In this document: in pieces, positions 8,080 to 44,042 of the stretch
How positions within the stretch are numbered: position 1 is the first letter of the stretch
Layout: every line of letters begins with the position of its first letter
Position numbers and translations under genes: made by a program
Notes under the pieces: generated by a model
The model's database searches: none
What the model was told of the DNA's origin: nothing
Seen by the model: only the letters and a program-made list of their open reading frames with translations
IMG/VR virus record: IMGVR_UViG_2585427970_000003
DNA length: 51,664 nt
Strand: one strand, 5' to 3'
Origin: a virus
Lineage: Duplodnaviria; Heunggongvirae; Uroviricota; Caudoviricetes

Positions 8080-8502
8080 GTGGCAAAAGTTTTTACACAA
8101 GAAGAGCGGGAAAAAATTAAATGGCAGGTGGTGGAACTCGTGCGCCAGAGCGGCCGTGAGACGTTACGGCAACTGGAAGCTAAAACAGGTGCGACTAGAT
8201 ATCTGATGAGCGTTCTTGCCAGAGAGCTGGTAGCCAGTGGCGATGTATACAACTCCGGCTACGGGTTATTCCCCTCTGAACAGGCGCGTAAGGACTGGCA
8301 AAACGCCCGCAAAAAACTCTCGAGGGCAAAGGTGAAGAAACCTGCTGTGGTTGATCCGGACCTTATCTGGTCATCACCTGACGGAGAAATACGTCGCTAC
8401 GACAGTCGCCTAAACATAATCTGTCGCGAGTGCCGGAAGAGCGAAGTTATGCAGCGCATACTGGCTTTCTATCAGGGTAATTTTCAGGACGTGGCGCAGT
8501 GA
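8080..8502 (+). CDS. Hypothetical protein (140 aa)
   Basis: Intact ORF with no motif I can assign; stop overlaps the start of the methyltransferase remnant. Confidence 0.4.
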   Translation: MAKVFTQEEREKIKWQVVELVRQSGRETLRQLEAKTGATRYLMSVLARELVASGDVYNSGYGLFPSEQARKDWQNARKKLSRAKVKKPAVVDPDLIWSSPDGEIRRYDSRLNIICRECRKSEVMQRILAFYQGNFQDVAQ

Positions 8503-8945
8503 GTGCACCGGCAACCATTCTTGATATGTGCTGTGGCAGCCGCATGTTCTGGTTCGATAAGTCTGACGAACGGGCGATATTCAGCGATATCAGAAAAGAA
8601 GGATACACATTACGCAATGGGAGACGCTTGATTATCAGCCCTGACATTATCGCAGATTTTCGTGCATTATCATTTGCAGACGCATCTTTTTCGATGGTTG
8701 TATTAGACCCTCCGCATCTTGAGAGTGTTGGTGATAACGCCTGGATGGGAAAGAAATATGGACGGCTGAATAAAGATGCCTGGCGTGATGATTCGCGACA
8801 GAGATTTAAAGAAGCCTTTCGGGTGTTGAGGCCGCACGGCGTTCTGATTTTTTAATGGAATGAAACGCAAATACCGGTAAGCCAGATTCTGGCACTGACA
8901 GACAGAAAACCTGTTATCTGTCAACGAACAGGGAAAAAACGATAA
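8499..8945 (+). pseudogene. SAM-dependent amino-methyltransferase with premature in-frame TAA
   Basis: Motif I-like LDMCCGSRM and motif IV DPPH; TAA at 8853..8855 followed by 29 sense codons in the same frame (WNETQIPVSQILALTDRKPVICQRTGKKR) to TAA at 8943. Confidence 0.55.
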
Positions 8946-9117
8946 AACCCACTGGATTATTTTTATGAAAGAGGCATCCAGTGAGTAGATTCGTAAGGCT
9001 ACAGATACGTATATCTGAATAATTAAATTCAGTTCTGTAAATAAAATTTAATCCTTAACCGGATGGATTTCTGCACCCTCAGAACATCAGGAGGCCGCCC
9101 GAAAGGGCGGTAGTGAA

Positions 9118-9753
9118 ATGCGAAAGTTCAAAATTATTATTGAAACGGGAATAGCTGGTGGAGATTTTGAGGATGTATTCGAAGTGGACGATGACGCAAC
9201 ACCTGAGGAAATTCATGACGGAGCATAAGAAATTTTCTTTAACTACTGCAATTACTCATACCACGAAATAAAAGACGATGAGGAAGAACAAAGTGGCTGA
9301 TTTTTGTTCAGCTAAATATAACATCAGTTTTGAAGAGCGGGATGAACTATTAATGGACTATGGTGAGTTACGCGGTGGAAGTGCTGCTGATGTCGAATCC
9401 TAGCGTGATGACTATGAAGCGGGAAAAACTCCGGTCGAAGCATATTGTGATGAGTGGGGCGATGAATGAGCGAGATTAATTATCAGGAAGGGCATGAAAC
9501 GGCGGGGCAAGCAAAACCAGTGGCATGGCGATATCGCTACGTGAAAAAAGGCGTTACGGACTTTCAGGGGAAGTAGTGGTCTGGTGACTGGAAATATGTA
9601 CCGAAAAAAGAGGATTGTAACGACAGGCCGAACTATCAAATTCAGGCCTTATTCACTGCCTCACCAGTCCCAGTTACATCAGAAGAACTGGTTAAAGCTG
9701 TGCACTTTTATGAACAACTAAAACGCGAAAATCCACCAACATCCGGCAACTAG
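9118..9753 (+). pseudogene. Decayed acidic-protein gene(s): in-frame TAA/TAG stops and a frame change
   Basis: ORF from ATG 9118 has TAA at 9226 then continues to TGA 9298; ORF from GTG 9293 has in-frame TAG at 9401, ends 9469; ORF from ATG 9466 has in-frame TAG at 9574, ends 9753. Confidence 0.5.
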
Positions 9754-10007
9754 ATTAATGGATTAACTATGTCGGTTAAACGACCAGCCAACTGAAAAAG
9801 CGGAAACCTGATTACAGGTTGCCAGATAAGGCAATGAGCTACCTGGCGCGGAACGGACTGATAAGTATGGGGAATGTTTTACGATGAACCTTTAGACTAA
9901 AGAGTTTGTAACGCTATGTAAGTGATTTTTTCTGGTTTAGATATTTATATGTCCGGCCAAATTGAGGTGTGTTTAAATGTAATTGCACATTGATTGTAGG
10001 AGGAATA

Positions 10008-10187
10008 ATGAAAAACGCATTGCAGTTTTTGTTTGTTGCGTTCTGGTTGTTCGCATCATGTATGCCCATCATCTTCACAGCAAGGTATATGGAAAAAGTT
10101 GATGTTTTGATATTAATATTTGGATATATAAATGCCCTTTTTTTAGGGGTGTTCATGGCGGTCATGTGCATTGAATACTGGCGGTAA
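10008..10187 (+). CDS. Small hydrophobic membrane protein (59 aa, two predicted TM helices)
   Basis: MKNALQFLFVAFWLFASCMPIIFTARYMEKVDVLILIFGYINALFLGVFMAVMCIEYWR; AGGAGG at 9998..10003, 4 nt before ATG; AT-rich surroundings. Confidence 0.5.
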   Translation: MKNALQFLFVAFWLFASCMPIIFTARYMEKVDVLILIFGYINALFLGVFMAVMCIEYWR

Positions 10188-10521
10188 ATACAGCGAACTC
10201 CATTGGTTTAGTTGGATATTTACTGTGCTGGACAAAAACGGTTTGCGGGGAAATCTTAGTTAAGTAGAATGACTGCGGGTGCTTGAGGCTATCTGCCTCG
10301 GGCATGGACACCAACGGCAGATAGAGAAAAGCCCCAGTTAACATTACGCGTCCTGCAAGACGCTTAACATTAATCTGAGGCCAATTTCATGCTAGACACA
10401 TGTAGGTTAGCCTCTTACGTGCCGAAAGGCACGGAGAAGCAGGCTATTGTTAACACCAAGCTGTAATGTCCCCTTTGAACCATTCTAAAATGTCCCCAGA
10501 CAATTCTCTGGGGGATTTTTC

Positions 10522-11835
10522 ATGATCAAAGAGACTGTTACGATGAGTCATAAGGAACTCCACCGACTTCAGATTATTCAGGAACAAGCTGCGGCACGCA
10601 TTGGCATTTCTATTCGGCAGGTTAAACGTCTGGTGCAACGGTATAGAAATGAAGGGCCTTCTGGTCTGGTTTCCCACCGACGTGGAAAGCGTCCTAATAA
10701 TTCCTTTTCTACTGAATTCAGAGCAACAGTAATTTCACTCCTCAAAGGCCGTTACGCTGATTTTGGACCTACGTTTGCGTGCGAAAAATTGCGCGAGATA
10801 CACGGTTTATCTTTATCCGTTGAAACTCTCAGAAAGTGGATGATAGAAGAGGGGTTATGGCGTGAACGCCGTCGTAAAATTGCCCGTATATATCAACGCC
10901 GCATGCGACGACCATCTTACGGTGAACTGATCCAGATTGATGGCTCACCTCATGACTGGTTTGAAAATCGAGGCCCCAGATGTACACTGATCGTTTTCAT
11001 TGATGATGCCACCAGTGCGTTGATGGCGTTGCGTTTTGTGCCTGCTGAAACAACCCGGGCTTACATGGAAACCCTCCGGGGTTACCTTAATGATCATGGC
11101 GTACCGCTCGCTCTCTACTCTGATAGACACAGTATATTCAGGGTAAATAACCCAGAGCGGGAAGGTGAGCTGACCCAGTTCACTCGTGCGATAAAGACAC
11201 TGGGCATCGAGCCAATCCATGCCAACAGCCCGCAGGCAAAAGGGCGGGTAGAGCGCGCCAATCAGACACTACAGGACAGGCTGGTCAAAGAAATGCGGCT
11301 TCAGAATATCAGTGATATTGAAACAGCAAATGCATGGTTGCCGACCTTTATTGAAGCCTATAACAACCGGTTCGCTACGTCGCCTCGTACTACTGATAAT
11401 GCTCATCTTGATGTGCACCATTCTGAAGAGGAACTGGGTTATATCTTCAGCCTACAGGCGAAGCGCGTTCTGTCTAAAAATCTCACTTTCCAGTACAAAA
11501 GCAGTGCGTTTCAGGTACGCAGTGAGGGCCGGGGATATCGACTTAGGCATTCGGTTGTTACTGTATGCGAGAACTTTGACGGTGAAATTAACGTTCTGTA
11601 TGACGGGAAAGCGCTGGGCTGGGAAAAGTATGTTGATGGCCCGGAGCCTATACCACTGGATGATGAAAAGAGTGTCCATGAACGAGTGGATAATGCCCGT
11701 ATTGATTTACGCTCAAAATACTATGTTAAACCTAAAGCTGACCATCCCTGGCTTACGCGCCGAACGCAAAGTCATCAGCAAGTTAAGCCCCCGAAGTTAC
11801 CTAAAAAGAAGCCTGATCCCGATAAAAAAGATTGA
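10522..11835 (+). CDS. DDE-type transposase / integrase-core-domain protein (IS481/ISNCY-like)
   Basis: 437 aa; N-terminal HTH, then catalytic-type motifs IQIDGS ... LYSDRHSIF ... KGRVERANQ, basic C-terminal tail. Element ends not resolved. Confidence 0.65.
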   Translation: MIKETVTMSHKELHRLQIIQEQAAARIGISIRQVKRLVQRYRNEGPSGLVSHRRGKRPNNSFSTEFRATVISLLKGRYADFGPTFACEKLREIHGLSLSVETLRKWMIEEGLWRERRRKIARIYQRRMRRPSYGELIQIDGSPHDWFENRGPRCTLIVFIDDATSALMALRFVPAETTRAYMETLRGYLNDHGVPLALYSDRHSIFRVNNPEREGELTQFTRAIKTLGIEPIHANSPQAKGRVERANQTLQDRLVKEMRLQNISDIETANAWLPTFIEAYNNRFATSPRTTDNAHLDVHHSEEELGYIFSLQAKRVLSKNLTFQYKSSAFQVRSEGRGYRLRHSVVTVCENFDGEINVLYDGKALGWEKYVDGPEPIPLDDEKSVHERVDNARIDLRSKYYVKPKADHPWLTRRTQSHQQVKPPKLPKKKPDPDKKD

Positions 11836-28189: not shown

Positions 28190-28198
28190 GGGATGTTT

Positions 28199-29612: not shown

Positions 29613-29653
29613 TCATGGCCCTTCGGGGCCATTTTCTCTCTGTGGAGGAGTCC

Positions 29654-30049
29654 ATGACGAAAGATGAACTGATTGCCCGTCTTCAGGTGCTGGGTGAGCA
29701 ACTGAACCGTGATGTCAGCCTGACGGGGACGAAAGAAGAACTGGCACTCCGTGTGGCAGAGCTGGAAGAGGAGCTTGATGACACGGATGACGCTGCCGGT
29801 CAGGACACATCTGTCAGCCCGGAAAATGCGCTGACCGGACATGAAAATGAGGTGGTATCAGCGCAGCCGGATACCGTGACTGATACGGCTGATCTGGTCA
29901 CGGTTGTGGCACTGGTGACGCTGCATACTGATGCACTTCACGCCACGCGGGATGAGGCTGTGGCATTTGTGCTGCCGGGAACGACGTTCCGTGTCTCTGC
30001 CGGTGTGGCAGCTGAAATGACAGAGCGCGGCCTGGCCAGAATGCAATAA
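29654..30049 (+). CDS. FI: DNA packaging protein FI
   Basis: MTKDELIARLQVLGEQLNRDVSLTGTKEELALRVAELEEELDD... Confidence 0.85.
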   Translation: MTKDELIARLQVLGEQLNRDVSLTGTKEELALRVAELEEELDDTDDAAGQDTSVSPENALTGHENEVVSAQPDTVTDTADLVTVVALVTLHTDALHATRDEAVAFVLPGTTFRVSAGVAAEMTERGLARMQ

Positions 30050-30060
30050 CGGGAGGCGCT

Positions 30061-30414
30061 GTGGCTGATTTCGATAACCTGTTCGATGCTGCCATTGCCC
30101 GCGCCGATGAAACGATACGCGGGTACATGGGAACGTCAGCCACCATGACATCCGGTGAGCAGTCCGGCGCAGTAATACGTGGTGTTTTTGATGATCCTGA
30201 AAATATCAGCTATGCCGGACAGGGCGTACGCGTTGAAGGCTCCAGCCCGTCCCTGTTTGTCCGGACTGATGATGTGCGGCAGCTGCGGCGCGGCGACACG
30301 CTGACCATCGGTGAGGAAAACTTCTGGATAGACCGGATTTCGCCGGATGATGGCGGAAGCTGTCATCTCTGGCTTGGGCGGGGCGTACCGCCTGCCGTTA
30401 ACCGTCGCCGCTGA
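30061..30414 (+). CDS. FII: Head-tail connector FII
   Basis: 117 aa MADFDNLFDAAIARADETIRGYMGTSATMTSGEQSGAVIRGVFDDPENISYAGQG... Confidence 0.85.
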   Translation: MADFDNLFDAAIARADETIRGYMGTSATMTSGEQSGAVIRGVFDDPENISYAGQGVRVEGSSPSLFVRTDDVRQLRRGDTLTIGEENFWIDRISPDDGGSCHLWLGRGVPPAVNRRR

Positions 30415-30425
30415 AAGGGGGATGT

Positions 30426-31004
30426 ATGGCCATAAAAGGTCTTGAGCAGGCCGTTGAAAACCTCAGCCGTATCAGCAGAACGGCGGTGCCCGGTGCCGCC
30501 GCAATGGCCATTAACCGCGTTGCTTCATCCGCGATATCGCAGTCGGCGTCACAGGTTGCCCGTGAGACAAAGGTACGCCGGAAACTGGTAAAGGAAAGGG
30601 CCTGGCTGAAAAGGGCCACGGTCAAAAATCCGCAGGCCAGAATCAGGGTTAACCGGGGGGATTTGCCCGTAATAAAGCTGGGTAACGCGCGGATTGTCCT
30701 GTCCCGACGCAGGCGTCGTAAAAAGGGGCAGCGTTCAGCCCTGAAAGGTGGCGGCAGCGTGCTTGTGGTGGGAAACCGTCGTATTCCCGGCGCGTTTATT
30801 CAGCAACTGAAAAATGGCCGCTGGCATGTCATGCAGCGTGTGGCCGGGAAAAACCGTTACCCCATTGATGTGGTGAAAATCCCGATGGCGGTGCCGCTGA
30901 CCACGGCGTTTAAACAGAATATTGAGCGGATACGGCGTGAGCGTCTTCCGAAAGAGCTGGGCTATGCGCTGCAGCATCAACTGAGAATGGTAATAAAGCG
31001 ATGA
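30426..31004 (+). CDS. Z: Tail terminator / completion protein Z
   Basis: 192 aa, lambda gpZ-like. Confidence 0.85.
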   Translation: MAIKGLEQAVENLSRISRTAVPGAAAMAINRVASSAISQSASQVARETKVRRKLVKERAWLKRATVKNPQARIRVNRGDLPVIKLGNARIVLSRRRRRKKGQRSALKGGGSVLVVGNRRIPGAFIQQLKNGRWHVMQRVAGKNRYPIDVVKIPMAVPLTTAFKQNIERIRRERLPKELGYALQHQLRMVIKR

Positions 31005-31396
31005 AACATACTGAACTCCGTGCAGCCGTACTGGATGCACTGGAGAAGCATGACACCGGGGCGACGCTTTTTGATGGTCGCCCCGCTGTTTTTGATGAGG
31101 CGGATTTTCCGGCAATTGCCGTTTATCTCACCGGCGCTGAATACACGGGCGAAGAGCTGGACAGTGATACCTGGCAGGCGGAGCTGCATATCGAAGTTTT
31201 CCTGCCTGCTCAGGTGCCGGATTCAGAGCTGGATTCGTGGATGGAGTCCCGGATTTATCCGGTGATGAGCGATATCCCGGCACTGTCAGATTTGATCACC
31301 AGTATGGTGGCCAGTGGCTATGACTACCGGCGCGACGATGATGCGGGCCTGTGGAGTTCTGCCGATCTGACGTATGTCATTACCTATGAAATGTGA
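31001..31396 (+). CDS. U: Tail terminator U
   Basis: 131 aa [52 protein letters not shown]... Confidence 0.85.
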
Positions 31397-31403
31397 GGAC
31401 GAT

Positions 31404-32144
31404 ATGCCTGTACCAAATCCAGCAATACCGGTGAAAGGTGCCGGAACCACCCTGTGGGTTTATAACGGGAGCGGCGACCCTTATGCGAACCCGCTTTCAG
31501 ACGTTGACTGGTCGCGTCTGGCAAAAGTTAAAGACCTGACGCCCGGCGAACTGACCGCTGAGTCCTATGACGACAGTTATCTCGATGATGAAGATGCGGA
31601 CTGGACCGCGACCGGGCAGGGGCAGAAATCCGCCGGAGATACCAGCTTCACGCTGGCGTGGATGCCCGGAGAGCAGGGGCAGCAGGCGCTGCTGGCGTGG
31701 TTTAATGAAGGTGATACCCGTGCCTATAAAATCCGCTTCCCGAACGGCACGGTCGATGTGTTCCGTGGCTGGGTCAGCAGTATCGGTAAGGCGGTGACGG
31801 CGAAGGAAGTGATCACCCGTACGGTGAAGGTCACCAATGTGGGCCGTCCGTCAATGGCAGAAGATCGCAGTACGGTGACGGCGGCAACCGGTATGACCGT
31901 GACGCCTGCCAGCTCCTCGGTGGTGAAAGGGCAGAGCACCACGCTGACCGTGGCATTCCAGCCGGAGGGCGCAACTGACAAGAGCTTCCGTGCGGTGTCA
32001 GCGGATAAAACAAAAGCCACCGTGTCGGTCAGTGGTATGACCATCACCGTGAAAGGCGTTGCTGCAGGTAAGGTCAACATTCCGGTTGTATCCGGTAATG
32101 GTGAACTTGCTGCGGTTGCAGAAATCACTGTCACCGACAGTTAA
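31404..32144 (+). CDS. V: Major tail protein V
   Basis: [57 protein letters not shown]...; C-terminal Ig-like domain. Confidence 0.9.
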
Positions 32145-32159
32145 TCCGGAGAGTCAGCG

Positions 32160-32582
32160 ATGTTCCTGAAAACCGAATCATTTGAACATAACGGCGTGAC
32201 CGTCACGCTTTCTGAACTGTCAGCCCTGCAGCGTATTGAGCATCTCGCCCTGATGAAACGGCAGGCAGAACAGGCGGAGTCAGACAGCAACCGGAAGTTT
32301 ACTGTGGAAGACGCCATCAGAACCGGTGCTTTTGTGGTAGCGATGTCCCTGTGGCATAACCATCCGCAGAAGACAAAGCAGCCTTCCATGAATGAAGCCG
32401 TTAAACAGATTGAGCAGGAAGTGCTTACCACCTGGCCTACAGAGGCAATTTCTCATGCTGAAAACGTGGTGTACCGGCTGTCCGGTATGTCTGAGTTTGT
32501 GGTGAATGATGCCCCTGAACAGGCAGAGGACGCCGGGCCAGCAGAGCCTGTTTCTGCGGGAAAGTGTTCGACGGTGAGCTGA
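32160..32582 (+). CDS. G: Tail assembly chaperone G
   Basis: 140 aa, lambda gpG-like; slippery heptamer G GGA AAG at 32558..32564 near its 3' end. Confidence 0.85.
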   Translation: MFLKTESFEHNGVTVTLSELSALQRIEHLALMKRQAEQAESDSNRKFTVEDAIRTGAFVVAMSLWHNHPQKTKQPSMNEAVKQIEQEVLTTWPTEAISHAENVVYRLSGMSEFVVNDAPEQAEDAGPAEPVSAGKCSTVS

Positions 32583-33022
32583 GTTTTGCCCTGAAACTGG
32601 CGCGCGAGATGGGGCGACCCGACTGGCGTGCCATGCTTGCCGGGATGTCATCCACGGAGTATGCCGACTGGCACCGCTTTTACAGTACCCATTATTTTCA
32701 TGATGTTCTGCTGGATATGCACTTTTCCGGGCTGACGTACACCGTGCTCAGCCTGTTTTTCAGCGATCCGGATATGCATCCGCTGGATTTCAGTCTGCTG
32801 AACCGGCGCGAGGCTGACGAAGAGCCTGAAGATGATGTGCTGATGCAGAAAGCGGCAGGACTTGCCGGAGGCGTTCGTTTTGGCCCGGACGGGAATGAAG
32901 TTATCCCCGCTTCCCCGGATGTGGCGGACATGACGGAGGATGACGTAATGCTGATGACAGTATCAGAAGGGATCGCAGGAGGAGTCCGGTATGGCTTAAC
33001 CGGTAGGCGATCTGGTCGTTGA
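32564..33022 (+). CDS. T: T segment of the G-T -1 frameshift fusion, C-terminally extended by 8 codons
   Basis: -1 frame continues from the slippery site (GKVFDGELSFALKLAREMGRPDW...); the lambda TGA stop position reads TTA (32996..32998), so the frame runs on to 33022. Confidence 0.75.
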   Translation: MFDGELSFALKLAREMGRPDWRAMLAGMSSTEYADWHRFYSTHYFHDVLLDMHFSGLTYTVLSLFFSDPDMHPLDFSLLNRREADEEPEDDVLMQKAAGLAGGVRFGPDGNEVIPASPDVADMTEDDVMLMTVSEGIAGGVRYGLTGRRSGR

Positions 33023-33056
33023 TTTAAGTCTGGATGCGGCCAGATTTGACGAGCAG

Positions 33057-35570
33057 ATGGCCAGAGTCAGGCGTCATTTTTCCGGTACGGAAACTGATGC
33101 GAAAAAAACAGCGGCAGTCGTTGAACAGTCGCTGAGCCGACAGGCGCTGGCTGCACAGAAAGCGGGGATTTCCGTCGGGCAGTATAAAGCCGCCATGCGT
33201 ATGCTGCCTGCACAGTTCACCGACGTGGCCACGCAGCTTGCAGGCGGGCAAAGTCCGTGGCTGATCCTGCTGCAACAGGGTGGTCAGGTTAAGGACTCCT
33301 TCGGCGGGATGATCCCCATGTTCAGGGGGCTTGCCGGTGCGATCACCCTGCCGATGGTGGGGGCCACCTCGCTGGCGGTGGCGACCGGTGCGCTGGCGTA
33401 TGCCTGGTATCAGGGCAACTCAACCCTGTCCGATTTCAACAAAACGCTGGTCCTTTCCGGCAATCAGGCGGGACTGACGGCAGATCGTATTCTGGTCCTG
33501 TCCAGAGCCGGGCAGGCGGCAGGGCTGACGTTTAACCAGACCAGCGAGTCACTGACGGCGCTGGTGAATGCCGGTGTGCGTGGTGGTGAGCAGTTTGAGG
33601 CGATCAGCCAGAGTGTGGCGCGTTTCTCCTCTGCATCCGGCGTGGAGGTGGACAAGGTCGCTGAAGCCTTCGGGAAGCTGACCACAGACCCGACGTCGGG
33701 ACTGACAGCGATGGCACGTCAGTTCCATAACGTGACGGCGGAGCAGATTGCGTATGTTGCTCAGTTGCAGCGTTCCGGAGATGAAGCCGGGGCATTGCAG
33801 GCGGCGAACGAGGCCGCAACGAAAGGGTTTGATGACCAGACCCGCCGCCTGAAAGAGAACATGGGCACGCTGGAGACCTGGGCAGACAGGACAGCACGGG
33901 CATTCAAATCCATGTGGGATTCGGTGCTGGATATTGGTCGCCCGGACACTGCCCAGGGAATGCTGGAGAAAGCAGAAAAGGCTTTTGATGAGGCGGACAA
34001 AAAATGGCAGTGGTATCAGAGCCGAAGCCACCGGCGCGGTAAAACCTCAGCATTTCTTGCCAATCTCCGGGGAGCATGGGAGGACAGAGCGAATGCGCAA
34101 CTTGGGCTTTCAGCCGCCACGTTGCAGGCTGATCTTGAAAAGGCCAGAGAGATGGCAGCAAAGGACTGGGCCGAGTCTGAGGCATCACGGCTGAAATATA
34201 CCGAAGAGGCGCAGAAGGCTTACGAACGCCTGCAGACGCCGCTGGAGAAATATACCGCCCGTCAGGAAGAACTGAACAAGGCACTGAAAGACGGGAAAAT
34301 CCTGCAGGCAGATTACAACACGCTGATGGCGGCGGCGAAAAAGGATTATGAAGCGACGCTGAAAAAGCCGAAACAGTCCGGCGTGAAAGTGTCTGCGGGC
34401 GATCGTCAGGAAGACAGTGCTCATGCTGCCCTGCTGACGCTTCAGGCTGAACTCCGGACGCTGGAGAAGCATGCCGGAGCAAATGAGAAAATCAGCCAGC
34501 AGCGCCGGGATTTGTGGAAGGCGGAGAGTCAGTTCGCGGTACTGGAGGAGGCGGCGCAACGTCGCCAGCTGTCCGCACAGGAGAAATCCCTGCTGGCGCA
34601 TAAAGATGAGACGCTGGAGTACAAACGCCAGCTGGCTGCACTTGGCGACAAGGTTACGTATCAGGAGCGCCTGAACGCGCTGGCGCAGCAGGCGGATAAG
34701 TTCGCACAGCAACAACGGGCAAAACGGGCAGCCATTGAGGCGAAAAACCGGGGGCTTACTGACCGGCAGGCAGCGCGGGAAGCCACAGAACAGCGCCTGA
34801 AGGAACAGTATGGCGATAATTCGCTGGCGCTGAATAACGTCATGTCAGAGCAGAAAAAGACCTGGGCGGCTGAAGACCAGCTTCGCGGGAGCTGGATGGC
34901 AGGCCTCAGGTCCGGCTGGAGTGAGTGGGAAGAGAGCGCCACGGACAGTATGTCGCAGGTTAAAAGTGCAGCCACGCAGACCTTTGATGGTATTGCGCAG
35001 AATATGGCGGCGATGCTGACCGGCAGTGAGCAGAACTGGCGCAGCTTCACCCGTTCCGTGCTGTCCATGATGACAGAAATTCTGCTTAAGCAGGCAATGG
35101 TGGGGATTGTCGGGAGTATCGGTAGCGCCATTGGCGGGGCTGTTGGTGGCGGCGCATCCGCATCAGGCGGTACAGCCATTCAGGCAGCTGCGGCGAAATT
35201 CCATTTTGCAACCGGAGGATTTACGGGAACCGGCGGCAAATATGAGCCAGCGGGGATTGTTCACCGTGGTGAATTTGTCTTCACGAAGGAGGCAACCAGC
35301 CGAATTGGTGTCGGCAACCTGTACCGCCTGATGCGGGGCTATGCGGAAGGTGGTTATGTGGGCGGTGCCGGAAGTCCGGCGCAGATGCGGCGGGCTGAAG
35401 GCATTAATTTTAATCAGAACAATCACGTGGTGATTCAGAACGACGGTACGAATGGTCTGCCAGGTCCACAGATGATGAAGGCAGTGTATGACATGGCCCG
35501 CAAGGGTGCCCGTGATGAAATTCAGGCACAGATGCGCGATGGTGGTCTGTTCTCCGGAGGTGGACGATGA
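33057..35570 (+). CDS. H: Tape measure protein H, N-terminally compromised
   Basis: Native start ATG 32991 is followed by GCT then TAA (32997..32999); longest intact ORF restarts at Met23 (33057), 837 aa, otherwise lambda gpH-like. Confidence 0.8.
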   Translation: MARVRRHFSGTETDAKKTAAVVEQSLSRQALAAQKAGISVGQYKAAMRMLPAQFTDVATQLAGGQSPWLILLQQGGQVKDSFGGMIPMFRGLAGAITLPMVGATSLAVATGALAYAWYQGNSTLSDFNKTLVLSGNQAGLTADRILVLSRAGQAAGLTFNQTSESLTALVNAGVRGGEQFEAISQSVARFSSASGVEVDKVAEAFGKLTTDPTSGLTAMARQFHNVTAEQIAYVAQLQRSGDEAGALQAANEAATKGFDDQTRRLKENMGTLETWADRTARAFKSMWDSVLDIGRPDTAQGMLEKAEKAFDEADKKWQWYQSRSHRRGKTSAFLANLRGAWEDRANAQLGLSAATLQADLEKAREMAAKDWAESEASRLKYTEEAQKAYERLQTPLEKYTARQEELNKALKDGKILQADYNTLMAAAKKDYEATLKKPKQSGVKVSAGDRQEDSAHAALLTLQAELRTLEKHAGANEKISQQRRDLWKAESQFAVLEEAAQRRQLSAQEKSLLAHKDETLEYKRQLAALGDKVTYQERLNALAQQADKFAQQQRAKRAAIEAKNRGLTDRQAAREATEQRLKEQYGDNSLALNNVMSEQKKTWAAEDQLRGSWMAGLRSGWSEWEESATDSMSQVKSAATQTFDGIAQNMAAMLTGSEQNWRSFTRSVLSMMTEILLKQAMVGIVGSIGSAIGGAVGGGASASGGTAIQAAAAKFHFATGGFTGTGGKYEPAGIVHRGEFVFTKEATSRIGVGNLYRLMRGYAEGGYVGGAGSPAQMRRAEGINFNQNNHVVIQNDGTNGLPGPQMMKAVYDMARKGARDEIQAQMRDGGLFSGGGR

Positions 35571-35896
35571 AGACCTTCCGCTGGAAAGTGAAACCCGGTA
35601 TGGATGTGGCTTCGGCCCCTTCCGTCAGGAAAGTGCGCTTTGGTGATGGCTATTCCCAGCGAGCGCCTGCCGGGCTGAATGCCAACCTGAAAACGTACAG
35701 CGTGACGCTTTCTGTTCCCCGTTGGGAGGCCACGGCGCTGGAGTCGTTTCTGGCTGAGCACGGGGGCTGGAAAGCCTTTCTGTGGACGCCGCCTTATGAG
35801 TGGCGGCAGATAAAGGTGACCTGCGCAAAATGGTCGTCGCGGGTCAGTATGCTGCGTGTTGAGTTCAGCGCAGAGTTTGAACAGGTGGTGAACTGA
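35567..35896 (+). CDS. M: Tail tip assembly protein M
   Basis: 109 aa MKTFRWKVKPGMDVASAPSVRKVRFGDGYSQRAPAGLNANLKTYSV... Confidence 0.85.
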   Translation: MKTFRWKVKPGMDVASAPSVRKVRFGDGYSQRAPAGLNANLKTYSVTLSVPRWEATALESFLAEHGGWKAFLWTPPYEWRQIKVTCAKWSSRVSMLRVEFSAEFEQVVN

Positions 35897-36594
35897 TGCA
35901 GGATATCCGGCAGGAAACACTGAATGAATGCACCCGTGCGGAGCAGTCGGCCAGCGTGGTGCTCTGGGAAATCGACCTGACAGAGGTCGGTGGAGAACGT
36001 TATTTTTTCTGTAATGAGCAGAACGAAAAAGGTGAGCCGGTCACCTGGCAGGGGCGACAGTATCAGCCGTATCCCATTCAGGGGAGTGGTTTTGAACTGA
36101 ATGGCAAAGGCACCAGTACGCGCCCCACACTGACGGTTTCTAACCTGTACGGTATGGTCACCGGGATGGCGGAAGATCTGCAGAGTCTGGTCGGTGGAAC
36201 GGTGGTCCGGCGTAAGGTTTACGCCCGTTTTCTGGATGCGGTGAACTTCGTCAACGGAAACAGTGGCGCCGATCCGGAGCAGGAGGTGATCAGCCGCTGG
36301 CGCATTGAGCAGTGCAGCGAACTGAGCGCGGTGAGTGCCTCTTTTGTACTGTCCACGCCGACGGAAACGGACGGTGCTGTTTTTCCGGGACGTATCATGC
36401 TGGCCAACACCTGCACCTGGACCTATCGCGGTGATGAGTGCGGTTATCACGGTCCGGCAGTCGCGGATGAATATGACCAGCCAACGTCCGATATCACGAA
36501 GGATAAATGCAGCAAATGCCTGAGCGGTTGTAAGTTCCGCAATAACGTCGGCAACTTTGGCGGCTTCCTTTCCATTAACAAACTTTCGCAGTAA
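35896..36594 (+). CDS. L: Tail tip protein L
   Basis: 232 aa, lambda gpL-like. Confidence 0.85.
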   Translation: MQDIRQETLNECTRAEQSASVVLWEIDLTEVGGERYFFCNEQNEKGEPVTWQGRQYQPYPIQGSGFELNGKGTSTRPTLTVSNLYGMVTGMAEDLQSLVGGTVVRRKVYARFLDAVNFVNGNSGADPEQEVISRWRIEQCSELSAVSASFVLSTPTETDGAVFPGRIMLANTCTWTYRGDECGYHGPAVADEYDQPTSDITKDKCSKCLSGCKFRNNVGNFGGFLSINKLSQ

Positions 36595-36599
36595 ATCCC

Positions 36600-37343
36600 A
36601 TGACACAGACAGAATCAGCGATTCTGGCGCACGCCCGGCGATGTGCGCCAGCGGAGTCGTGCGGCTTCGTGGTGAGAGCGCCGGAGGGGGAAAGATATTT
36701 TCCCGGCGTGAATATTTCCGGTGAGCCGGAGGATTATTTCCGGATGGCTCCGGAGGACTGGCTGCAGGCAGAAATGCAGGGTGAGATTGTGGCGCTGGTC
36801 CACAGCCACCCCGGTGGTCTGCCCTGGCTGAGTGAGGCTGACCGGCGGCTGCAGGTGCAGAGTGATTTGCCGTGGTGGCTGGTCTGCCGGGGGGCGATTC
36901 ATAAGTTCCGCTGTGTGCCGCATCTCACCGGGCGGCGCTTTGAGCACGGGGTGACGGACTGTTACACGCTGTTCCGGGATGCTTATCATCTGGCGGGGAT
37001 TGAGATGCCGGATTTTCATCGCGAGGATGACTGGTGGCGTCACGGTCAGAATCTCTATCTGGATAATCTGGAGGCCACAGGGCTGTATCAGGTGCCGTTG
37101 TCAGCGGCGCAGCCGGGCGATGTGCTGCTGTGCTGTTTTGGTTCATCGGTGCCGAATCATGCCGCCATTTACTGTGGTGACGGTGAGCTGCTGCACCATA
37201 TTCCTGAACAACTGAGTAAACGAGAGAGGTACACCGACAAATGGCAGCGACGCACACACTCCCTCTGGCGTCACCGGGAATGGCACGCATCTGCCTTTAC
37301 GGGGATTTGCAACGATTTGGCCGCCGCATCGACCTTCGTGTGA
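36600..37343 (+). CDS. K: Tail tip assembly protein K (JAMM/MPN plus NlpC/P60-type)
   Basis: MTQTESAILAHARRCAPAESCGFVV...; HSHPGG...SEAD metalloprotease-like motif. Confidence 0.8.
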   Translation: MTQTESAILAHARRCAPAESCGFVVRAPEGERYFPGVNISGEPEDYFRMAPEDWLQAEMQGEIVALVHSHPGGLPWLSEADRRLQVQSDLPWWLVCRGAIHKFRCVPHLTGRRFEHGVTDCYTLFRDAYHLAGIEMPDFHREDDWWRHGQNLYLDNLEATGLYQVPLSAAQPGDVLLCCFGSSVPNHAAIYCGDGELLHHIPEQLSKRERYTDKWQRRTHSLWRHREWHASAFTGICNDLAAASTFV

Positions 37344-37912
37344 AAACGGGGGCTGAAGCCATCCGCGCACTGGCCACACAGCTCCCGGCGTTTCGTCAGA
37401 AACTGAGCGACGGCTGGTATCAGGTACGGATTGCCGGGCAGGATGTCAGCACGTCCGGATTAACGGCGCAGTTACATGAGACTCTGCCTGATGGCGCTGT
37501 GATTCATATTGTTCCCAGAGTCGCCGGGGCCAAGTCTGGTGGTGTATTCCAGATTGTCCTGGGAGCAGCCGCCATTGCCGGATCATTCTTTACCGCCGGA
37601 GCCACCCTTGCAGCATGGGGGGCAGCCATTGGGGCCGGTGGTATGACCGGCATCCTGTTTTCTCTCGGTGCCAGTATGGTGCTCGGTGGTGTGGCGCAGA
37701 TGCTGGCACCGAAAGCCAGAACTCCCCGTACACAGACAACGGATAACGGCAAACAGAACACCTATTTCTCCTCACTGGATAACATGGTTGCCCAGGGCAA
37801 TGTTCTGCCTGTTCTGTACGGTGAAATGCGCGTGGGGTCACGCGTGGTTTCTCAGGAGATCAGCACGGCAGACGAAGGGGATGGTGGTCAGGTTGTGGTG
37901 ATTGGTCGCTGA
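37241..37912 (+). CDS. I: Tail tip assembly protein I
   Basis: 223 aa, lambda gpI-like; overlaps the 3' end of K. Confidence 0.8.
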   Translation: MAATHTLPLASPGMARICLYGDLQRFGRRIDLRVKTGAEAIRALATQLPAFRQKLSDGWYQVRIAGQDVSTSGLTAQLHETLPDGAVIHIVPRVAGAKSGGVFQIVLGAAAIAGSFFTAGATLAAWGAAIGAGGMTGILFSLGASMVLGGVAQMLAPKARTPRTQTTDNGKQNTYFSSLDNMVAQGNVLPVLYGEMRVGSRVVSQEISTADEGDGGQVVVIGR

Positions 37913-37972
37913 TGCAAAATGTTTTATGTGAAACCGCCTGCGGGCGGTTTTGTCGTTTATGGAGCGTGAGGA

Positions 37973-40900
37973 ATGGGTAAAGGCAGCAGTAAGGGGCATA
38001 CCCCGCGCGAAGCGAAGGACAACCTGAAGTCCACGCAGCTGCTGAGTGTGATCGATGCCATCAGCGAAGGGCCGGTTGAAGGTCCGGTGGACGGATTAAA
38101 AAGCGTGCTGCTGAACAGTACGCCGGTGCTGGACAGTGAGGGGAATACCAATATATCCGGCGTCACGGTGGTGTTCCGGACCGGTGAGCAGGAGCAGTCA
38201 CCGCCGGAGGGATTTGAATCCTCCGGCTCCGAGACGGTGCTGGGTACGGAAGTGAAATATGACACGCCGATCACCCGGACCATCACGTCGGCAAACATCG
38301 ACCGTCTGCGCTTTACCTTCGGTGTACAGGCACTGGTGGAAACCACCTCAAAGGGGGACCGGAATCCGTCGGAAGTCCGCCTGCTGGTTCAGATACAGCG
38401 TAATGGTGGCTGGGTGACGGAAAAAGACATCACCATTAAGGGCAAAACCACCTCGCAGTATCTGGCCTCGGTGGTGGTGGATAACCTGCCGCCGCGCCCG
38501 TTCAATATCCGGATGCGCAGGATGACGCCGGACAGCACCACAGACCAGCTGCAGAACAAAACGCTCTGGTCGTCATACACCGAAATCATCGATGTGAAAC
38601 AGGGCTACCCGAACACGGCACTGGTCGGCGTGCAGGTGGATTCGGAGCAGTTCGGCAGCCAGCAGGTGAGCCGTAATTATCATCTGCGCGGGCGTATTCT
38701 GCAGGTGCCGTCGAATTATAACCCGCAGACGCGGCAATACAGCGGTATCTGGGACGGAACGTTTAAACCGGCATACAGCAACAACATGGCCTGGTGTCTG
38801 TGGGATATGCTGACCCACCCGCGCTACGGCATGGGGAAACGTCTTGGTGCGGCAGATGTGGATAAATGGGCGCTGTATGTCATCGGCCAGAATTGCGACC
38901 AGTCGGTGCCGGACGGCTTTGGCGGCACGGAGCCGCGCATTACCTGTAATGCGTACCTGACCACACAGCGCAAGGCGTGGGATGTGCTCAGTGATTTCTG
39001 CTCGGCGATGCGCTGTATGCCGGTATGGAACGGGCAGACGCTGACGTTCGTGCAGGACCGACCGTCGGATAAGGTGTGGACCTATAACCGCAGTAATGTG
39101 GTGATGCCGGATGATGGCGCGCCGTTCCGCTACAGCTTCAGCGCCCTGAAGGACCGTCATAATGCCGTTGAGGTGAACTGGATTGACCCGAATAACGGCT
39201 GGGAGACGGCGACAGAGCTTGTGGAGGATACGCAGGCCATTGTCCGTTACGGTCGTAACGTCACGAAGATGGATGCCTTTGGCTGTACCAGCCGGGGGCA
39301 GGCGCACCGCGCCGGGCTGTGGCTGATTAAAACGGAACTGCTGGAAACGCAGACCGTGGACTTCAGCGTGGGTGCGGAAGGGCTTCGCCATGTACCGGGG
39401 GATGTCATTGAAATCTGCGATGATGACTATGCGGGTATCAGCATCGGCGGGCGCGTGCTGGCGGTGAACAGCCAGACCCGGACGCTGACGCTCGACCGTG
39501 AAATCACGCTGCCATCCTCCGGTACCACGCTGATAAGCCTGGTTGACGGAAGTGGCAATCCGGTCAGCGTGGAGGTCCAGTCCGTCACCGACGGCGTGAA
39601 GGTAAAAGTGAGCCGTGTTCCTGACGGCGTTGCCGGATACAGCGTGTGGGGGCTGAAGCTGCCGACGCTGCGCCAGCGCCTGTTCCGCTGCGTGAGTATC
39701 CGTGAGAACGATGACGGCACGTATGCCATCACCGCCGTGCAGCATGTACCGGAAAAAGAGGCCATCGTGGATAACGGGGCGCACTTTGACGGCGACCAGA
39801 GCGGCACGGTGAATGGTGTCACGCCGCCAGCGGTGCAGCACCTGACTGCCGAAGTCACCGCAGACAGCGGGGAATATCAGGTACTGGCCCGCTGGGACAC
39901 GCCGAAGGTGGTGAAGGGGGTGAGCTTTATGCTTCGCCTGACCGTGGCAGCGGATGACGGCAGTGAGCGGCTGGTCAGCACAGCCCGGACGGCGGAAACC
40001 ACATACCGCTTCACACAACTGGCGCTGGGGAACTACAGGCTGACAGTCCGGGCAGTAAATGCGTGGGGGCAGCAGGGCGATCCGGCATCGGTATCGTTCC
40101 GGATTGCCGCACCGGCAGCGCCGTCGCAGATTGAGCTGACACCGGGGTATTTTCAGATAACCGCCACGCCGCATCTTGCGGTTTATGATCCGACGGTACA
40201 GTTTGAGTTCTGGTTCTCGGAAAAGCGGATTGCGGATATCAGGCAGGTTGAAACCAGCGCGCGCTATCTTGGCACGGGGATGTACTGGATAGCCGCCAGT
40301 ATCAATATCAAACCGGGCCATGATTATTACTTTTATATCCGCAGTGTGAACACCGTTGGCAAATCGGCATTCGTGGAGGCTGTCGGTCAGGCGAGCGATG
40401 ATGCGGAAGGTTACCTGGATTTTTTCAAAGGCCAGATAACCGAATCCCATCTCGGCAAGGAGCTGCTGGAAAAAGTCGAGCTGACGGAGGATAACGCCAG
40501 CAAACTGGAGGAGTTTTCGAAAGAGTGGCAGGACGCTAACGATAAGTGGAATGCCATGTGGGGCGTCAAAATTGAGCAGACCAAAGACGGCAAACATTAT
40601 GTCGCGGGTATTGGCCTCAGCATGGAGGACACGGAAGAAGGTAAGCTGAGCCAGTTTCTGGTTGCCGCTAACCGTATCGCGTTTATTGAACCGGCAAACG
40701 GGAATGAAACGCCGATGTTTGTGGCGCAGGGCAATCAGATATTTATGAACGACGTGTTCCTGAAGCGCCTGACGGCCCCGACCATTACCAGCGGTGGAAA
40801 TCCACCGGCATTTTCCCTGACATCAGACGGAAAGCTGACCGCTAAAAATGCGGATATCAGTGGCAGTGTGAATGCGAACGCCGGGACGCTCAACAATGTC

Positions 40901-41446
40901 ACGGTAAATGAAAACTGTACGATTAAGGGCATGCTGGAGGCGACTCAGGTCAGAGGTGACTTCGTTAAAGCTGTATCCAAATCATTCCCGAAACAGGCTG
41001 GTACGTGGGGTAATACGGAAACACCAAACGGGACGGTTACAGTCACCATCAGCGATGATCATAACTTTGACCGTCAAATCATTATTCCGCCCATTATCTT
41101 TAACGGAATAGCGTATAGCGATCCGGGAAGTGGTAATAACCCGGGAGGTACAAGATACACGGGTTATGGTTTTGAAGTTCGCAAAAACGGTGTATTAATC
41201 GCATCCAGAGAAACTAAAGGGGCCATTCCCGGTAGCTACAGTGCGGTTATTGATATGCCGAGTGGCAGGGGAAGCGTCACTCTGGAGTTTAAGGTTTTCC
41301 ATAAAGGCAATCAGCGGGCAGGTAATATCACCGACTGTACGGTGATTGTGACCAAAAAAGCGGCTTCTGCGTATTTTCATGAAAGGAGATCACTCAATAA
41401 CTTCCATCGAGATCGGGTAATAACATTTGAACAGATCGCTGAATAA
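37973..41446 (+). CDS. J: Tail tip / host-specificity protein J, 3' end replaced by IS-derived sequence
   Basis: [43 protein letters not shown]...; the last 25 codons (from 41369) lie inside the left inverted repeat of an IS21-family element. Confidence 0.85.
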
Positions 41447-41560
41447 CATCGATGGAGATCACTTTTGACTCATTTTGTTATTCAGTGATCTCCATCAATG
41501 TTATTGGAACTTCACAGGTGTGTTGATCTGTATCTTTTGCCATTCCGGTAAAGGATACCT

Positions 41561-43102
41561 ATGCCAACAGTTCCAATTTCTATGAGAAAACTTAAAGAAA
41601 TTCTTAGGCTTAAATACGGTGTTGGACTCAGCCATCGACAAATTGGTCGTAGTCTTGCAATCTCCCCTTCCGTTGTATCCAGATATGCTAATCGGGCGGC
41701 TCAACTTGGCATAAAGCAGTGGCCCTTACCTACAGGATGGGATGATACAAAACTAAAACATGCGTTCCTTCAGACCCAGGTTAAGATGAAGAAGCACTCT
41801 CTGCCTGACTGGGCTACAGTACACCGGGAACTGCGTAATAAATGCGTGACGCTGCAGCTACTCTGGGAAGAATACTGTGAGCGTAATCCAGGCGGTTTTT
41901 ACAGCTATAACCATTACTGCCGGATGTACCGTGAATGGCTCAAAACCACTTCACCATCAATGCGTCAGGTACATAAAGCTGGCGAAAAACTTTTCGTTGA
42001 TTACTGTGGACCTACCGTTGGCGTTACCGACCCTGAGACCGGAGAAATAAGAACTGCTCAGGTCATCGTAGCTGTTCTCGGGGCATCAAGTTACACATGG
42101 GCAGAGGCCACCTGGTCTCAGCAGCTTGAAGACTGGGTGATGAGTCATGTTCGCTGCTTCCAGTGGTTGGGTGGCGTTCCTGAACTTGTTGTTCCGGACA
42201 ATCTGAAAAGCGCCACATCCAGGGCATGTAAGTATGATCCTGACGTTAACCCTACCTACCAGCAGATGCTTGAGCATTATAATGTCGCAGTTTTGCCTGC
42301 GCGGCCACGTAAACCGAAAGATAAAGCCAAAGCTGAAGTTGGCGTTCAGGTTGTTGAACGCTGGATCATGGCCCGAATCAGGCATGAGATCTTCTACAGC
42401 CTTGCATCGCTTAATCAGCGCATTCGGGAGTTGCTGGAAAGACTGAATAACAAAATAATGCAGAAGTTGGGTTATTCACGTGCAGAACTCTTCATCCAGC
42501 TTGATAAACCCGCACTGAAGCCTCTTCCTGAAGCCAGTTACAGTTACACCCTGGTGAAGAAAGTCAGAGTTCATGCCGATTACCACGTGGAAATCGACAA
42601 ACATTACTACTCGGTTCCATGTTCGCTGTTAGGCCAGCAACTGGAAGCATGGATCTCCGGAGAACTGGTAAGACTCTTCAATCAGGGGCAGGAGGTTGCT
42701 GTGCACCCGCGCAAGCGTACTTATGGCTACAGTACCCGCAACGAGCACATGCCTGAAGCTCATCGACAGCATGCCACCTGGACGCCAGAGCGTCTTCTGG
42801 AATGGGCGGGGCACATAGGCAGTGAAACTCATAGTTATGTGCTTCATATACTGAACTCTCGTCCACATCCGGAACAAAGCTATCGCTTCTGCCTTGGACT
42901 CCTGAACCTTCATAAAAAATACAGTAAAGCCAGACTTAATGCAGCATGTGCAAGAGCTCTGAAAACAAAGGTATGGCGTCTGTCAGGTATTAAATCGATC
43001 CTGGAAAAAGGTCTGGATAAACAACCTGTTCAGGATCCAAAACCAGATCTGTTATCCACGATGGAACACGAAAACGTACGCGGCAGTGAGTATTACCACT
43101 GA
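41561..43102 (+). CDS. istA: IS21-family transposase IstA
   Basis: 513 aa; N-terminal HTH then integrase-core-like catalytic region. Confidence 0.8.
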   Translation: MPTVPISMRKLKEILRLKYGVGLSHRQIGRSLAISPSVVSRYANRAAQLGIKQWPLPTGWDDTKLKHAFLQTQVKMKKHSLPDWATVHRELRNKCVTLQLLWEEYCERNPGGFYSYNHYCRMYREWLKTTSPSMRQVHKAGEKLFVDYCGPTVGVTDPETGEIRTAQVIVAVLGASSYTWAEATWSQQLEDWVMSHVRCFQWLGGVPELVVPDNLKSATSRACKYDPDVNPTYQQMLEHYNVAVLPARPRKPKDKAKAEVGVQVVERWIMARIRHEIFYSLASLNQRIRELLERLNNKIMQKLGYSRAELFIQLDKPALKPLPEASYSYTLVKKVRVHADYHVEIDKHYYSVPCSLLGQQLEAWISGELVRLFNQGQEVAVHPRKRTYGYSTRNEHMPEAHRQHATWTPERLLEWAGHIGSETHSYVLHILNSRPHPEQSYRFCLGLLNLHKKYSKARLNAACARALKTKVWRLSGIKSILEKGLDKQPVQDPKPDLLSTMEHENVRGSEYYH

Positions 43103-43113
43103 TACGGGATCCA

Positions 43114-43863
43114 ATGATGAATCATCTTTACGAACAACTGACCGCACTTAAACTCACCGGCTTCCGTGATGCGCTTAAAAAGCAACTTGCTCAGCCGGGC
43201 ACATACCAGGAGCTGGGCTTCGAAGAACGCCTGTCATTACTGACAGCAGAAGAACTAACCTGCCGTGAAAACAGGAAGGCAGAGCGTCTGATCAAACATG
43301 CACGGTTCAGACTTAATGCTGAGTTATCAAAGCTGGATTATCGTAACAATAGAGGGCTGGACAGGGCCCTCATCCGTTCACTCAGTCAGGGAAACTGGTT
43401 AACCCTGAAACAAAATATTTTACTGACCGGGGCCACCGGCAGCGGTAAAACGTTCCTGGCATGTGCACTTGGTCATAATGCCTGCCGACAGGGATACAAG
43501 GTCTACTATTATCGCCTTAAAGCGCTGATGGAACAGTGCTATCAGGGGCATGCTGATGGAAGATACAGCAAACTTTTGACCAGGCTGAATAATAGCGATC
43601 TGCTGCTTCTGGATGACTGGGGGCTGGAACCTCTCTCATCAGAACAGCGTAGCGACCTGCTGGAAATAGTGGATCTGATGTACCAACGAGGCTCAATCAT
43701 CGTAGTGAGCCAGTTGCCGGTGGAAAACTGGTACAAAATGATCGGAGACTCCACACATGCGGATGCCATCCTAGATCGACTGGTTCATGGCAGTATCAAG
43801 ATCGAACTTAAAGGAGAATCAATGCGGAAAATACAATCTCCGTTGACCGAAGGAGATCAGTGA
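43114..43863 (+). CDS. istB: IS21-family ATP-binding helper IstB
   Basis: 249 aa; Walker A GATGSGKT, Walker B LLLLDDWG. Confidence 0.85.
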   Translation: MMNHLYEQLTALKLTGFRDALKKQLAQPGTYQELGFEERLSLLTAEELTCRENRKAERLIKHARFRLNAELSKLDYRNNRGLDRALIRSLSQGNWLTLKQNILLTGATGSGKTFLACALGHNACRQGYKVYYYRLKALMEQCYQGHADGRYSKLLTRLNNSDLLLLDDWGLEPLSSEQRSDLLEIVDLMYQRGSIIVVSQLPVENWYKMIGDSTHADAILDRLVHGSIKIELKGESMRKIQSPLTEGDQ

Positions 43864-44042
43864 AGGTAATTTAAAAACGGTTCTGTGAAAGTGACACGAA
43901 CCGATCTCCATCGATGTTACTCACCGATCTCCTTCACGGTAATACGCAGCTTCAGGCATCAGTATTCGTTGAAATATTTATAACCCCAATAAATGGCGTC
44001 AGGAATGACGCCTTTTTTATTGCAGAAAAGCGAGAGGTAATT

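Follow-up and report, generated by a model that had tools for sequence, protein, structure and literature searches.

A single base change in the T/H overlap of a Qin-type prophage of Escherichia coli JA65 stops tape-measure gene H at its third codon and removes the stop of gene T

In phage lambda (the accession number in GenBank: J02459), the tail genes G, T and H occupy positions 9711-10133, 10115-10549 and 10542-13103, respectively, with 8 nt (10542-10549) common to T and H. The product of H, the tape measure gpH, is needed for making the tail initiator and for setting the tail length, and a premature stop in lambda H is expected, following the pathway of Katsura and Kuhl, to leave heads without tails. 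The laboratory H mutants of lambda are conditional alleles, which are maintained in suppressor hosts. For the chaperones encoded by G and T (PMC5009743), both gpG and gpGT interact with gpH, gpV being bound by the T domain, and the ratio of G to G-T is about 30:1 in the lambda system. In phage TP901-1, a tape measure without residues 2-31 gave neither plaques nor lysogeny (PMC5099701).

The stretch of DNA analysed here (the window, 51,664 nt) is an exact substring of contig JMJD01000003.1 of E. coli JA65, a clinical urosepsis isolate. It is 97% identical to lambda DNA from nu1 through the first third of H, and has in common with lambda the gene order, the GGGAAAG slippery site, an 8-nt overlap of the ATGGCTGA type and the N-terminus of H, MAEPVGDLVVDLSLDAARFDEQM. 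However, rather than being lambda itself, the element is a resident prophage of the Qin type at the ydfJ locus of strain JA65. The markers dicA, dicC, ydfW, flxA, relBE, hokD, rem, ydfU, ydfT, cspF/B/I and essD are all present (NCBIfam matches for DicA and DicC with E-values of 3e-70 and 1.8e-47, respectively), together with the further Qin markers rrrQ, rzpQ, gnsB, ydfO, nohA, tfaQ, pinQ and ydfK, and the right flank is ydfJ. Moreover, the window is colinear with the annotated locus of E. coli G6/7 at 99–100% identity. The ORFs of the replication region received no names from NCBIfam and were named by PHROGs.

In the H frame, the window reads ATG (32991-32993), GCT (32994-32996) and TAA (32997-32999), where ATG GCT GAA stands in lambda and its relatives. 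The base in the aligned column of position 32997 is G in lambda J02459, phage mEp332 and the prophage of E. coli W, and over the 901 bp compared with the last there are two differences in all, of which 32997 is one. The T and H genes of the window overlap by 8 nt (ATGGCTGA), and therefore the single base change affects both of them: the base that makes TAA in H turns the TGA of T, at codons 2-3 of H, into TTA. As a result, T has lost its normal end and runs to ...GGVRYGLTGRRSGR (152 aa), while lambda T ends with ...GGVRYG (144 aa). The Pfam family Phage_tail_T spans T residues 29-104. The -1 frameshift site GGGAAAG is at 32558 near the 3' end of G, and the open T frame begins at 32564. A preliminary description, made from the letters of the window, had proposed that a single base both ends H at codon 3 and adds 8 residues (LTGRRSGR) to T and to the G-T fusion, up to 33022; the reading frames (Table) confirm it on each point. 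It had also left room for T in the lambda reference itself, which the alignment settles in favour of G.

Table. Coordinates of the features discussed in the text (positions of the window).
Feature	Position	Strand	Remarks
Decayed early-right (nin) region	8499..11835	+	Lesions in the same state in G6/7
Intact gene G for a tail assembly chaperone of 140 aa	32160..32582	+	ORF; Pfam PF06894 Phage_TAC_2
T reading frame, stop lost	32564..33022	+	152 aa instead of 144; C-terminal extension LTGRRSGR
Native H start followed by ochre stop	32991..32999	+	ATG GCT TAA, Met-Ala-stop
Mutated base	32997..32997	+	T in the window, but G in lambda and every relative examined (alignment)
Out-of-frame ORF of 33 codons	33034..33135	+	ATG between the ochre stop and Met23 (ORF list)
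Remaining H ORF from Met23, 837 aa	33057..35570	+	TMP_2 and Tape_meas_lam_C; sole in-frame restart; poor ribosome-binding site
ISEc12, IS21 family	41368..43948	+	Insertion point 5 codons short of the J stop

H is located directly 3' of the G/T chaperone pair and 5' of M-L-K-I-J, as seen in the ORF map and the Pfam families of its neighbours. The rest of the gene has no further lesion, and reverting position 32997 alone gives a fully open frame for an intact H of 859 aa, which shows 99.77% identity to the intact proteins P0021 and P0024 (two residues different) and, as a variant with a mosaic central segment, 89% identity to the 853-aa H of lambda. In the restored protein, TMP_2 (PF06791) covers residues 54-256 (E-value 2.8e-70) and Tape_meas_lam_C (PF09718) covers residues 633-707 (E-value 2.8e-21). 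The uninterrupted frame from the conserved start (M-x-x-x-V-G-D-L...) is broken in the window by the TAA at codon 3. Judged by its sequence, H of the window is a recently inactivated member of the lambda gpH family and not an intact one. The N-terminal part in front of Met23 is well conserved: among 16 sequences, down to 50% identity, no change occurs at M1, D7, L8 or F19, and G6 and E21 reach at least 90% conservation. All of the 15 aligned homologues start at the conserved Met and none of them begins at Met23, a residue that is not conserved. In E. coli, truncated H ORFs of 321–400 aa are common on chromosome-sized contigs (P0034, P0042, P0049, P0065, P0071 and P0075).

A 36-mer centred on the T at 32997 had no match in 5,426 complete E. 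coli genomes and none in 50,697 phage records, while the same 36-mer with G, used as the control, was present in 3,481 of these genomes at 4,157 places and in 79 of the phage records. In exact-pattern scans, the T allele was also absent from 185,579 species-representative genomes, IMG/VR and metagenome contigs. A shared or recurrent allele was thus rejected, with none of the five collections, all searched with positive controls, containing T.

Taken together, we consider it very probable that a recent, strain-private G-to-T change in the Qin-type prophage of JA65 stopped H, extended T and left the prophage without functional tails, as a neutral step of its decay. Ribosomes loading at the strong Shine-Dalgarno sequence of H would make Met-Ala and then terminate, and the poorly placed ATG at 33057 would yield at best a trace of truncated H without residues 1-22 and without the conserved N-terminal motif in them. 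Since H is required for the tail initiator and for the tail length, the induced prophage should produce no functional tails.

The occurrence of the T allele in one strain only, and in a window taken from a 2014 PacBio RS/HGAP2 draft (PMC4271156), would also be expected if T at 32997 were an error of sequencing or assembly and the true genome had G. However, exactly the same 152-aa T and 837-aa H proteins are encoded on three JA65 contigs of different size classes in NCBI and Logan; the mutant T protein (WP_032164855.1 / EYB45342.1 / KEP10663.1) is found in two separate GenBank records and in the Logan read assembly, and the truncated H is recorded as WP_077764032.1. Errors in a PacBio consensus are, moreover, mostly homopolymer indels and not substitutions in a non-repetitive context. 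JA65 was assembled separately from Illumina (a5, 95x) and PacBio (HGAP2, 68x) data using separate DNA preparations (PMC4271156), and the contig pattern fits these two assemblies, EYB45342.1 presumably belonging to the Illumina one, JFFN. Such an error is thus very unlikely, and strong, though indirect, support indicates that the G-to-T change is real; it would represent a real, recent and private loss-of-function mutation, with the loss of tail assembly as its predicted outcome. Even with a real stop, a working tape measure might arise by reinitiation at Met23, without residues 1-22, and support tails together with a G-T protein longer by 8 residues. The 837-aa ORF retains both Pfam domains and has no other lesion, and the stop is 57 nt on the 5' side of the Met23 ATG, so that some termination-reinitiation is conceivable; the truncated H could also retain some function, as the 22 lost residues are outside TMP_2, which starts at residue 54, and the literature found on lambda gpH covers the C-terminus and the copy number, with no N-terminal deletion experiment found in it. 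On the other hand, the preliminary description had named Met23 (33057) as the restart and its ribosome-binding site as weak, and both statements hold: 33057 is the first ATG, GTG or TTG in the H frame past the stop, and its anti-Shine-Dalgarno pairing is just -1.8 kcal/mol, the second weakest among 19 late-gene starts, compared with -10.3 kcal/mol for GGAGGAG upstream of the native H start. Ribosomes resuming past the stop would, in addition, first encounter the out-of-frame ATG at 33034, whose ORF would divert them. Other starts for H were rejected, since the stop is 3' of the native start, which makes any upstream start useless and leaves Met23 as the only canonical one downstream; CTG codons at H positions 8 and 14 have no Shine-Dalgarno sequence either. 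The invariant positions within residues 1-22, the lack of any homologue starting at Met23 and the lethality of the TP901-1 deletion all argue against a functional product, and the IS element separately alters J, so infectious particles would be doubtful anyway. We therefore regard a tail-supporting restart at Met23 as quite improbable. The remaining way to full-length H would be reading through the ochre codon, either naturally or by a host suppressor tRNA, and a low level might matter when only three or six gpH molecules are needed per tail (PMC10721106, PMC12617516). ARAGORN, however, found no tRNA gene in the window, by which a phage-borne suppressor was rejected, and the extension of T would stay unrepaired in any case. 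Of the stop codons, UAA is terminated most efficiently in E. coli, and natural isolates seldom carry ochre suppressors, which are costly. The probability of sufficient readthrough is thus very low. The weak restart, the out-of-frame ATG, the lack of a tRNA gene in the window and the invariant residues 1-22 together support the initial proposal that production of a full-length tape measure is unlikely.

The tail operon carries a second, independent lesion, an ISEc12 copy at the 3' end of J. Its istA (41561-43102, 513 aa) and istB (43114-43863, 249 aa) are both open ORFs, it shares 99.9% identity with ISEc12 as annotated in G6/7, and it has terminal TG...CA inverted repeats and a target duplication, GCTTC; the C-terminal receptor-binding Pfam domain of J is matched over profile positions 1-129 of 135 only. 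The 36-mer at the junction of IS and J is absent from the complete E. coli genomes, and, the junction being private, no genome with this junction and an intact H was found among them. Two private lesions in the tail module, with all of the head genes intact, could reflect selection, in that the host gains by disabling the tails, for example when no infectious phage is released but the other functions of the prophage persist. But an induced cell would still lyse without tails, since intact genes for holin, lysozyme and Rz are present; a single strain with two lesions within ~11 kb of tail genes is not at odds with chance, and the T allele never recurs across the 4,157 homologous places. The early region, furthermore, was defective already, in a form shared with other strains: it contains a methyltransferase fragment, a DUF7167 gene with an internal stop (9118-9300), a frameshifted ORF (9466-9887) and a partial ISNCY transposase (from 10522). 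This decay predates the H mutation, because it is identical in the G6/7 prophage. We thus find selection for the loss of tails very unlikely, and the H mutation is best read as one more, presumably neutral, step in the decay of a prophage, since the early region had been partly lost and J is disrupted by the IS. No lesion affects the remaining late genes between nu1 and I, and the late operon may have been under some selection until recently.

Beyond annotation, the finding matters little. It provides a clean example of how an overlap of the type ATGnnTGA allows one substitution to damage two genes. RefSeq lists WP_032164855.1 (the 152-aa T) and WP_077764032.1 (the 837-aa H) as ordinary proteins, and both are products of the stop loss and the nonsense change, respectively. 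Prophage prediction tools would see an intact lambda-like late operon here, although tails are very probably not made. JA65 also offers a natural allele for work on the C-terminus of gpT or on the N-terminal end of gpH, for which engineered mutants would be equally good. If a tape measure starting at Met23 and a G-T protein longer by 8 residues did still assemble tails, to which we give a very small chance, the conserved N-terminal VGDLVV...F.E motif would be dispensable or would only tune tail termination and head joining, and JA65 would be a natural mutant with which to probe the head-proximal end of gpH, which is unresolved by cryo-EM.

Compared with the systems described before, H of the window resembles the TP901-1 tape-measure mutants in that the first ~30 residues of a siphophage tape measure are removed, and the TP901-1 protein, being unrelated in sequence and from a phage of a Gram-positive host, serves as an analogy only. 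Among experimental analogues it is the closest. With the classical H amber mutants of lambda, H of the window shares a premature stop, but differs from them in that the mutation is natural, is an ochre at codon 3 and alters T as well. Unlike Qin of E. coli K-12 and its fuller relatives, the element has an stf of full length and a head and tail operon that is lambda-like and complete. One of these relatives is the prophage of G6/7 (the accession number in GenBank: NZ_CP060061.1), which is ~100% identical to the window over 9118-23188 and has the same pseudogenes; in comparison with it, the H ochre codon and the IS in J are private to the window, while G6/7 has the same type of IS in lom.

The base at 32997 affects two neighbouring genes of the lambda-like tail operon at once, the tape-measure gene H and the tail assembly chaperone gene T upstream of it, because the overlap ATGGCTGA puts this base in both. 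From 32975 on the window reads ...GCAGGAGGAGTCCGGT ATG GCT TAA CCG GTA..., in which the H frame gives Met-Ala-stop (stop codon at 32997-32999) and the T frame continues as ...TAT GGC TTA ACC GGT AGG CGA TCT GGT CGT TGA, ending at 33022. The preliminary description had proposed this stop at H codon 3, the loss of the T stop, an 8-nt T/H overlap in lambda and a restart of H at codon 23 (Met23), and each was confirmed: lambda T occupies 10115-10549 and lambda H starts at 10542, and ATG 33057 is the first ATG, GTG or TTG in the H frame past the stop. The possibility that lambda itself has T at this position was also checked, and the aligned column holds G in lambda J02459, phage mEp332 and the E. 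coli W prophage, all of which share with the window the 57 bases before and the 28 bases after it.

The frequency of the T allele was assessed by megablast using a 36-base query centred on 32997, short enough that no 28-base seed survives a mismatch in the middle. The T allele had no match in 5,426 complete E. coli genomes, where the G-allele control was found at 4,157 places in 3,481 genomes, nor among 50,697 phage records, of which 79 matched the control; exact-pattern scans likewise gave no match among 185,579 species-representative genomes, in IMG/VR viral contigs and in JGI metagenome contigs. The T allele is private, and a sequencing error would produce such a base as well. However, the 152-aa T and 837-aa H products have exact matches, by identity look-up, that are adjacent on contig JMJD01000003.1 of GCA_000714975.1, whose T and H loci are exact substrings of the window, and two more contigs, of other size classes, carry the same pair. 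The strain behind the PacBio assembly JMJD is E. coli JA65, isolated from the blood of a patient with urosepsis; its Illumina MiSeq assembly (JFFN, 95x) was built from a DNA preparation of its own and with another assembler (PMC4271156). The 152-aa T occurs in GenBank as EYB45342.1 and KEP10663.1, in RefSeq as WP_032164855.1 and in one Logan read-assembly record. We infer that EYB45342.1 is the protein of the Illumina assembly; if so, T at 32997 was recovered independently on two platforms, which makes a sequencing error unlikely. RefSeq annotates WP_032164855.1 and WP_077764032.1 (the 837-aa H) as ordinary proteins, and H is not flagged as a pseudogene, so that in practice both the stop-loss T and the N-terminally truncated H are presented as normal proteins.

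When 32997 is reverted to G in silico, an uninterrupted H ORF of 859 aa results. Its product shares 89% identity with lambda gpH, and only 2 residues separate it from P0021 and P0024, two intact tape measures of E. coli; over 32560-33460 the E. coli W prophage departs from the window just at 32860 and 32997. Because the revertant ORF is intact and so near to its relatives, the ochre codon is the sole lesion in H and is evolutionarily very recent. The native start retains a strong Shine-Dalgarno sequence, GGAGGAG (anti-SD pairing of -10.3 kcal/mol), thus ribosomes are expected to load on H and terminate after two codons, whereas pairing at the Met23 ATG reaches no more than -1.8 kcal/mol, weaker than at all but one of 19 late-gene starts and as weak as previously suggested. 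Moreover, an out-of-frame ATG at 33034 begins a 33-codon ORF extending beyond 33057, and no tRNA genes were found in the window. The strong start leading into a stop, the poor restart and the lack of a tRNA in the window support the earlier reading that full-length tape measure is unlikely to be made, and little or no H product would be expected.

Any Met23 product would probably be inactive. Across 16 aligned homologues, down to 50% identity and including Citrobacter, Salmonella and Klebsiella, M1, D7, L8 and F19 never vary, and conservation is at least 90% at G6 and E21; all share the same start Met, except one evident T-H fusion call, and Met23 is not conserved. That an H product without residues 1-22 still works is very improbable, though the Pfam TMP_2 domain starts downstream of these residues, at residue 54; if such a product did work, the conserved N-terminal motif would be dispensable. 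gpH has its C-terminus, together with gpI, in the tail tip, which places its N-terminus towards the head (PMC10721106; PMC12617516), and a TP901-1 tape measure lacking residues 2-31 lost both plaquing and lysogeny (PMC5099701). An inactive H remains the preferred reading for the JA65 prophage. Since lambda genetics shows that H is required to form the tail initiator and to determine tail length, functional tails would not be expected from this prophage.

GGGAAAG, the slippery site for G-T, is preserved at 32558, and gpH is bound by gpG and by the G part of gpGT (PMC5009743). The Pfam Phage_tail_T match covers T residues 29-104, so the 8 added residues come after an unmodelled C-terminal tail. 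The last seven original T codons, GCA GGA GGA GTC CGG TAT GGC (...AGGVRYG; 32975-32996), hold the H ribosome-binding site and start codon. A homologue from Citrobacter (fused call P0083) keeps GGVRYG as well, and the conservation of this motif may reflect dual coding of the T C-terminus and the H Shine-Dalgarno and start.

Features of the prophage in the window
Feature	Position	Strand	Remarks
Integrase, excisionase, exonuclease	left arm		exonuclease 835 aa
DicA, DicC	left arm		
CII-like protein	left arm		
O-like replication initiator	7020-8039		left arm
Ren-like protein	8080-8502		left arm
Decayed early-right (nin) region	8499-11835		
DUF7167 gene	9118-9300		internal stop; common to G6/7
Frameshifted ORF	9466-9887		common to G6/7
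Methyltransferase fragment			profile positions 52-165 of 229; common to G6/7
Partial ISNCY transposase	in 8499-11835		runs into ydfW; common to G6/7
Stop-lost T ORF	32564..33022		152 aa; C-terminus ...GGVRYGLTGRRSGR
Remaining H ORF from Met23	33057-35570		837 aa
J (host-specificity) ORF	37973-41446		
ISEc12 (IS21 family)	~41368-43948		istA and istB intact; TG...CA ends; GCTTC target duplication
stf (side tail fibre)	44701-47781		full 1026-aa ORF
tfa	47781-48356		191 aa
pinQ-type invertase	48454-49044	minus	

Its nearest annotated relative, in strain G6/7 (NZ_CP060061.1), identifies the element as a full-length relative of Qin, the cryptic prophage of K-12. The Qin gene set is present in G6/7: ydfW, flxA, ydfV, relBE, hokD, rem, ydfU, ydfT (Q-like), cspF, cspB, essD, ydfR, rrrQ, rzpQ, cspI, gnsB, ydfO, ynfO and nohA, after which come a lambda-like operon for head and tail and then tfaQ, pinQ, ydfK and a split ydfJ. 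Between the window and G6/7 identity is essentially 100% over 9118-23188, and the decayed early-right region, 100% identical, has the same defects in both, so this decay is old, shared and earlier than the divergence of JA65 and G6/7. The O-like gene is followed by the ren-like gene with no P-type helicase-loader gene in between. The late genes at 23163-41367 are only 90-99% identical to G6/7, a sharp shift from the Qin core; G is 90% identical, with gaps, and megablast finds nothing in lambda or G6/7 that matches the centre of H (33965-34177). Complete genomes match the 24-kb late region at ~97% at best, and its mosaic structure is consistent with recombination there. The genes nu1 through G, as well as M, L, K and I, are all open and full-length, and stf is unbroken, whereas in G6/7 it consists of two partial pseudogenes. 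On the right flank, near ydfJ, ~150 bases (51043-51193) are without a G6/7 counterpart, with colinearity at 99.8-100% otherwise.

A second private lesion of the JA65 tail operon, besides the H ochre, is ISEc12 in J. It is inserted 5 codons upstream of the J stop, and J now ends in ...VIVTKKAAS plus 25 IS-encoded residues, which replace the last five residues GISIR; the match to the Pfam receptor-binding domain ends at profile position 129 of 135. The junction has no match in the 5,426 complete E. coli genomes, and G6/7 carries the same IS type in lom, not in J. It is common for resident prophages of E. coli to carry a broken H, with many N-terminal fragments of 321-400 aa on chromosome-sized E. 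coli contigs, the CP-933R copy included, and a nonsense mutation in a cryptic-prophage gene is a well-known kind of event. The T/H double lesion is very probably real, yet it amounts to ordinary decay of a prophage in a single clinical strain.
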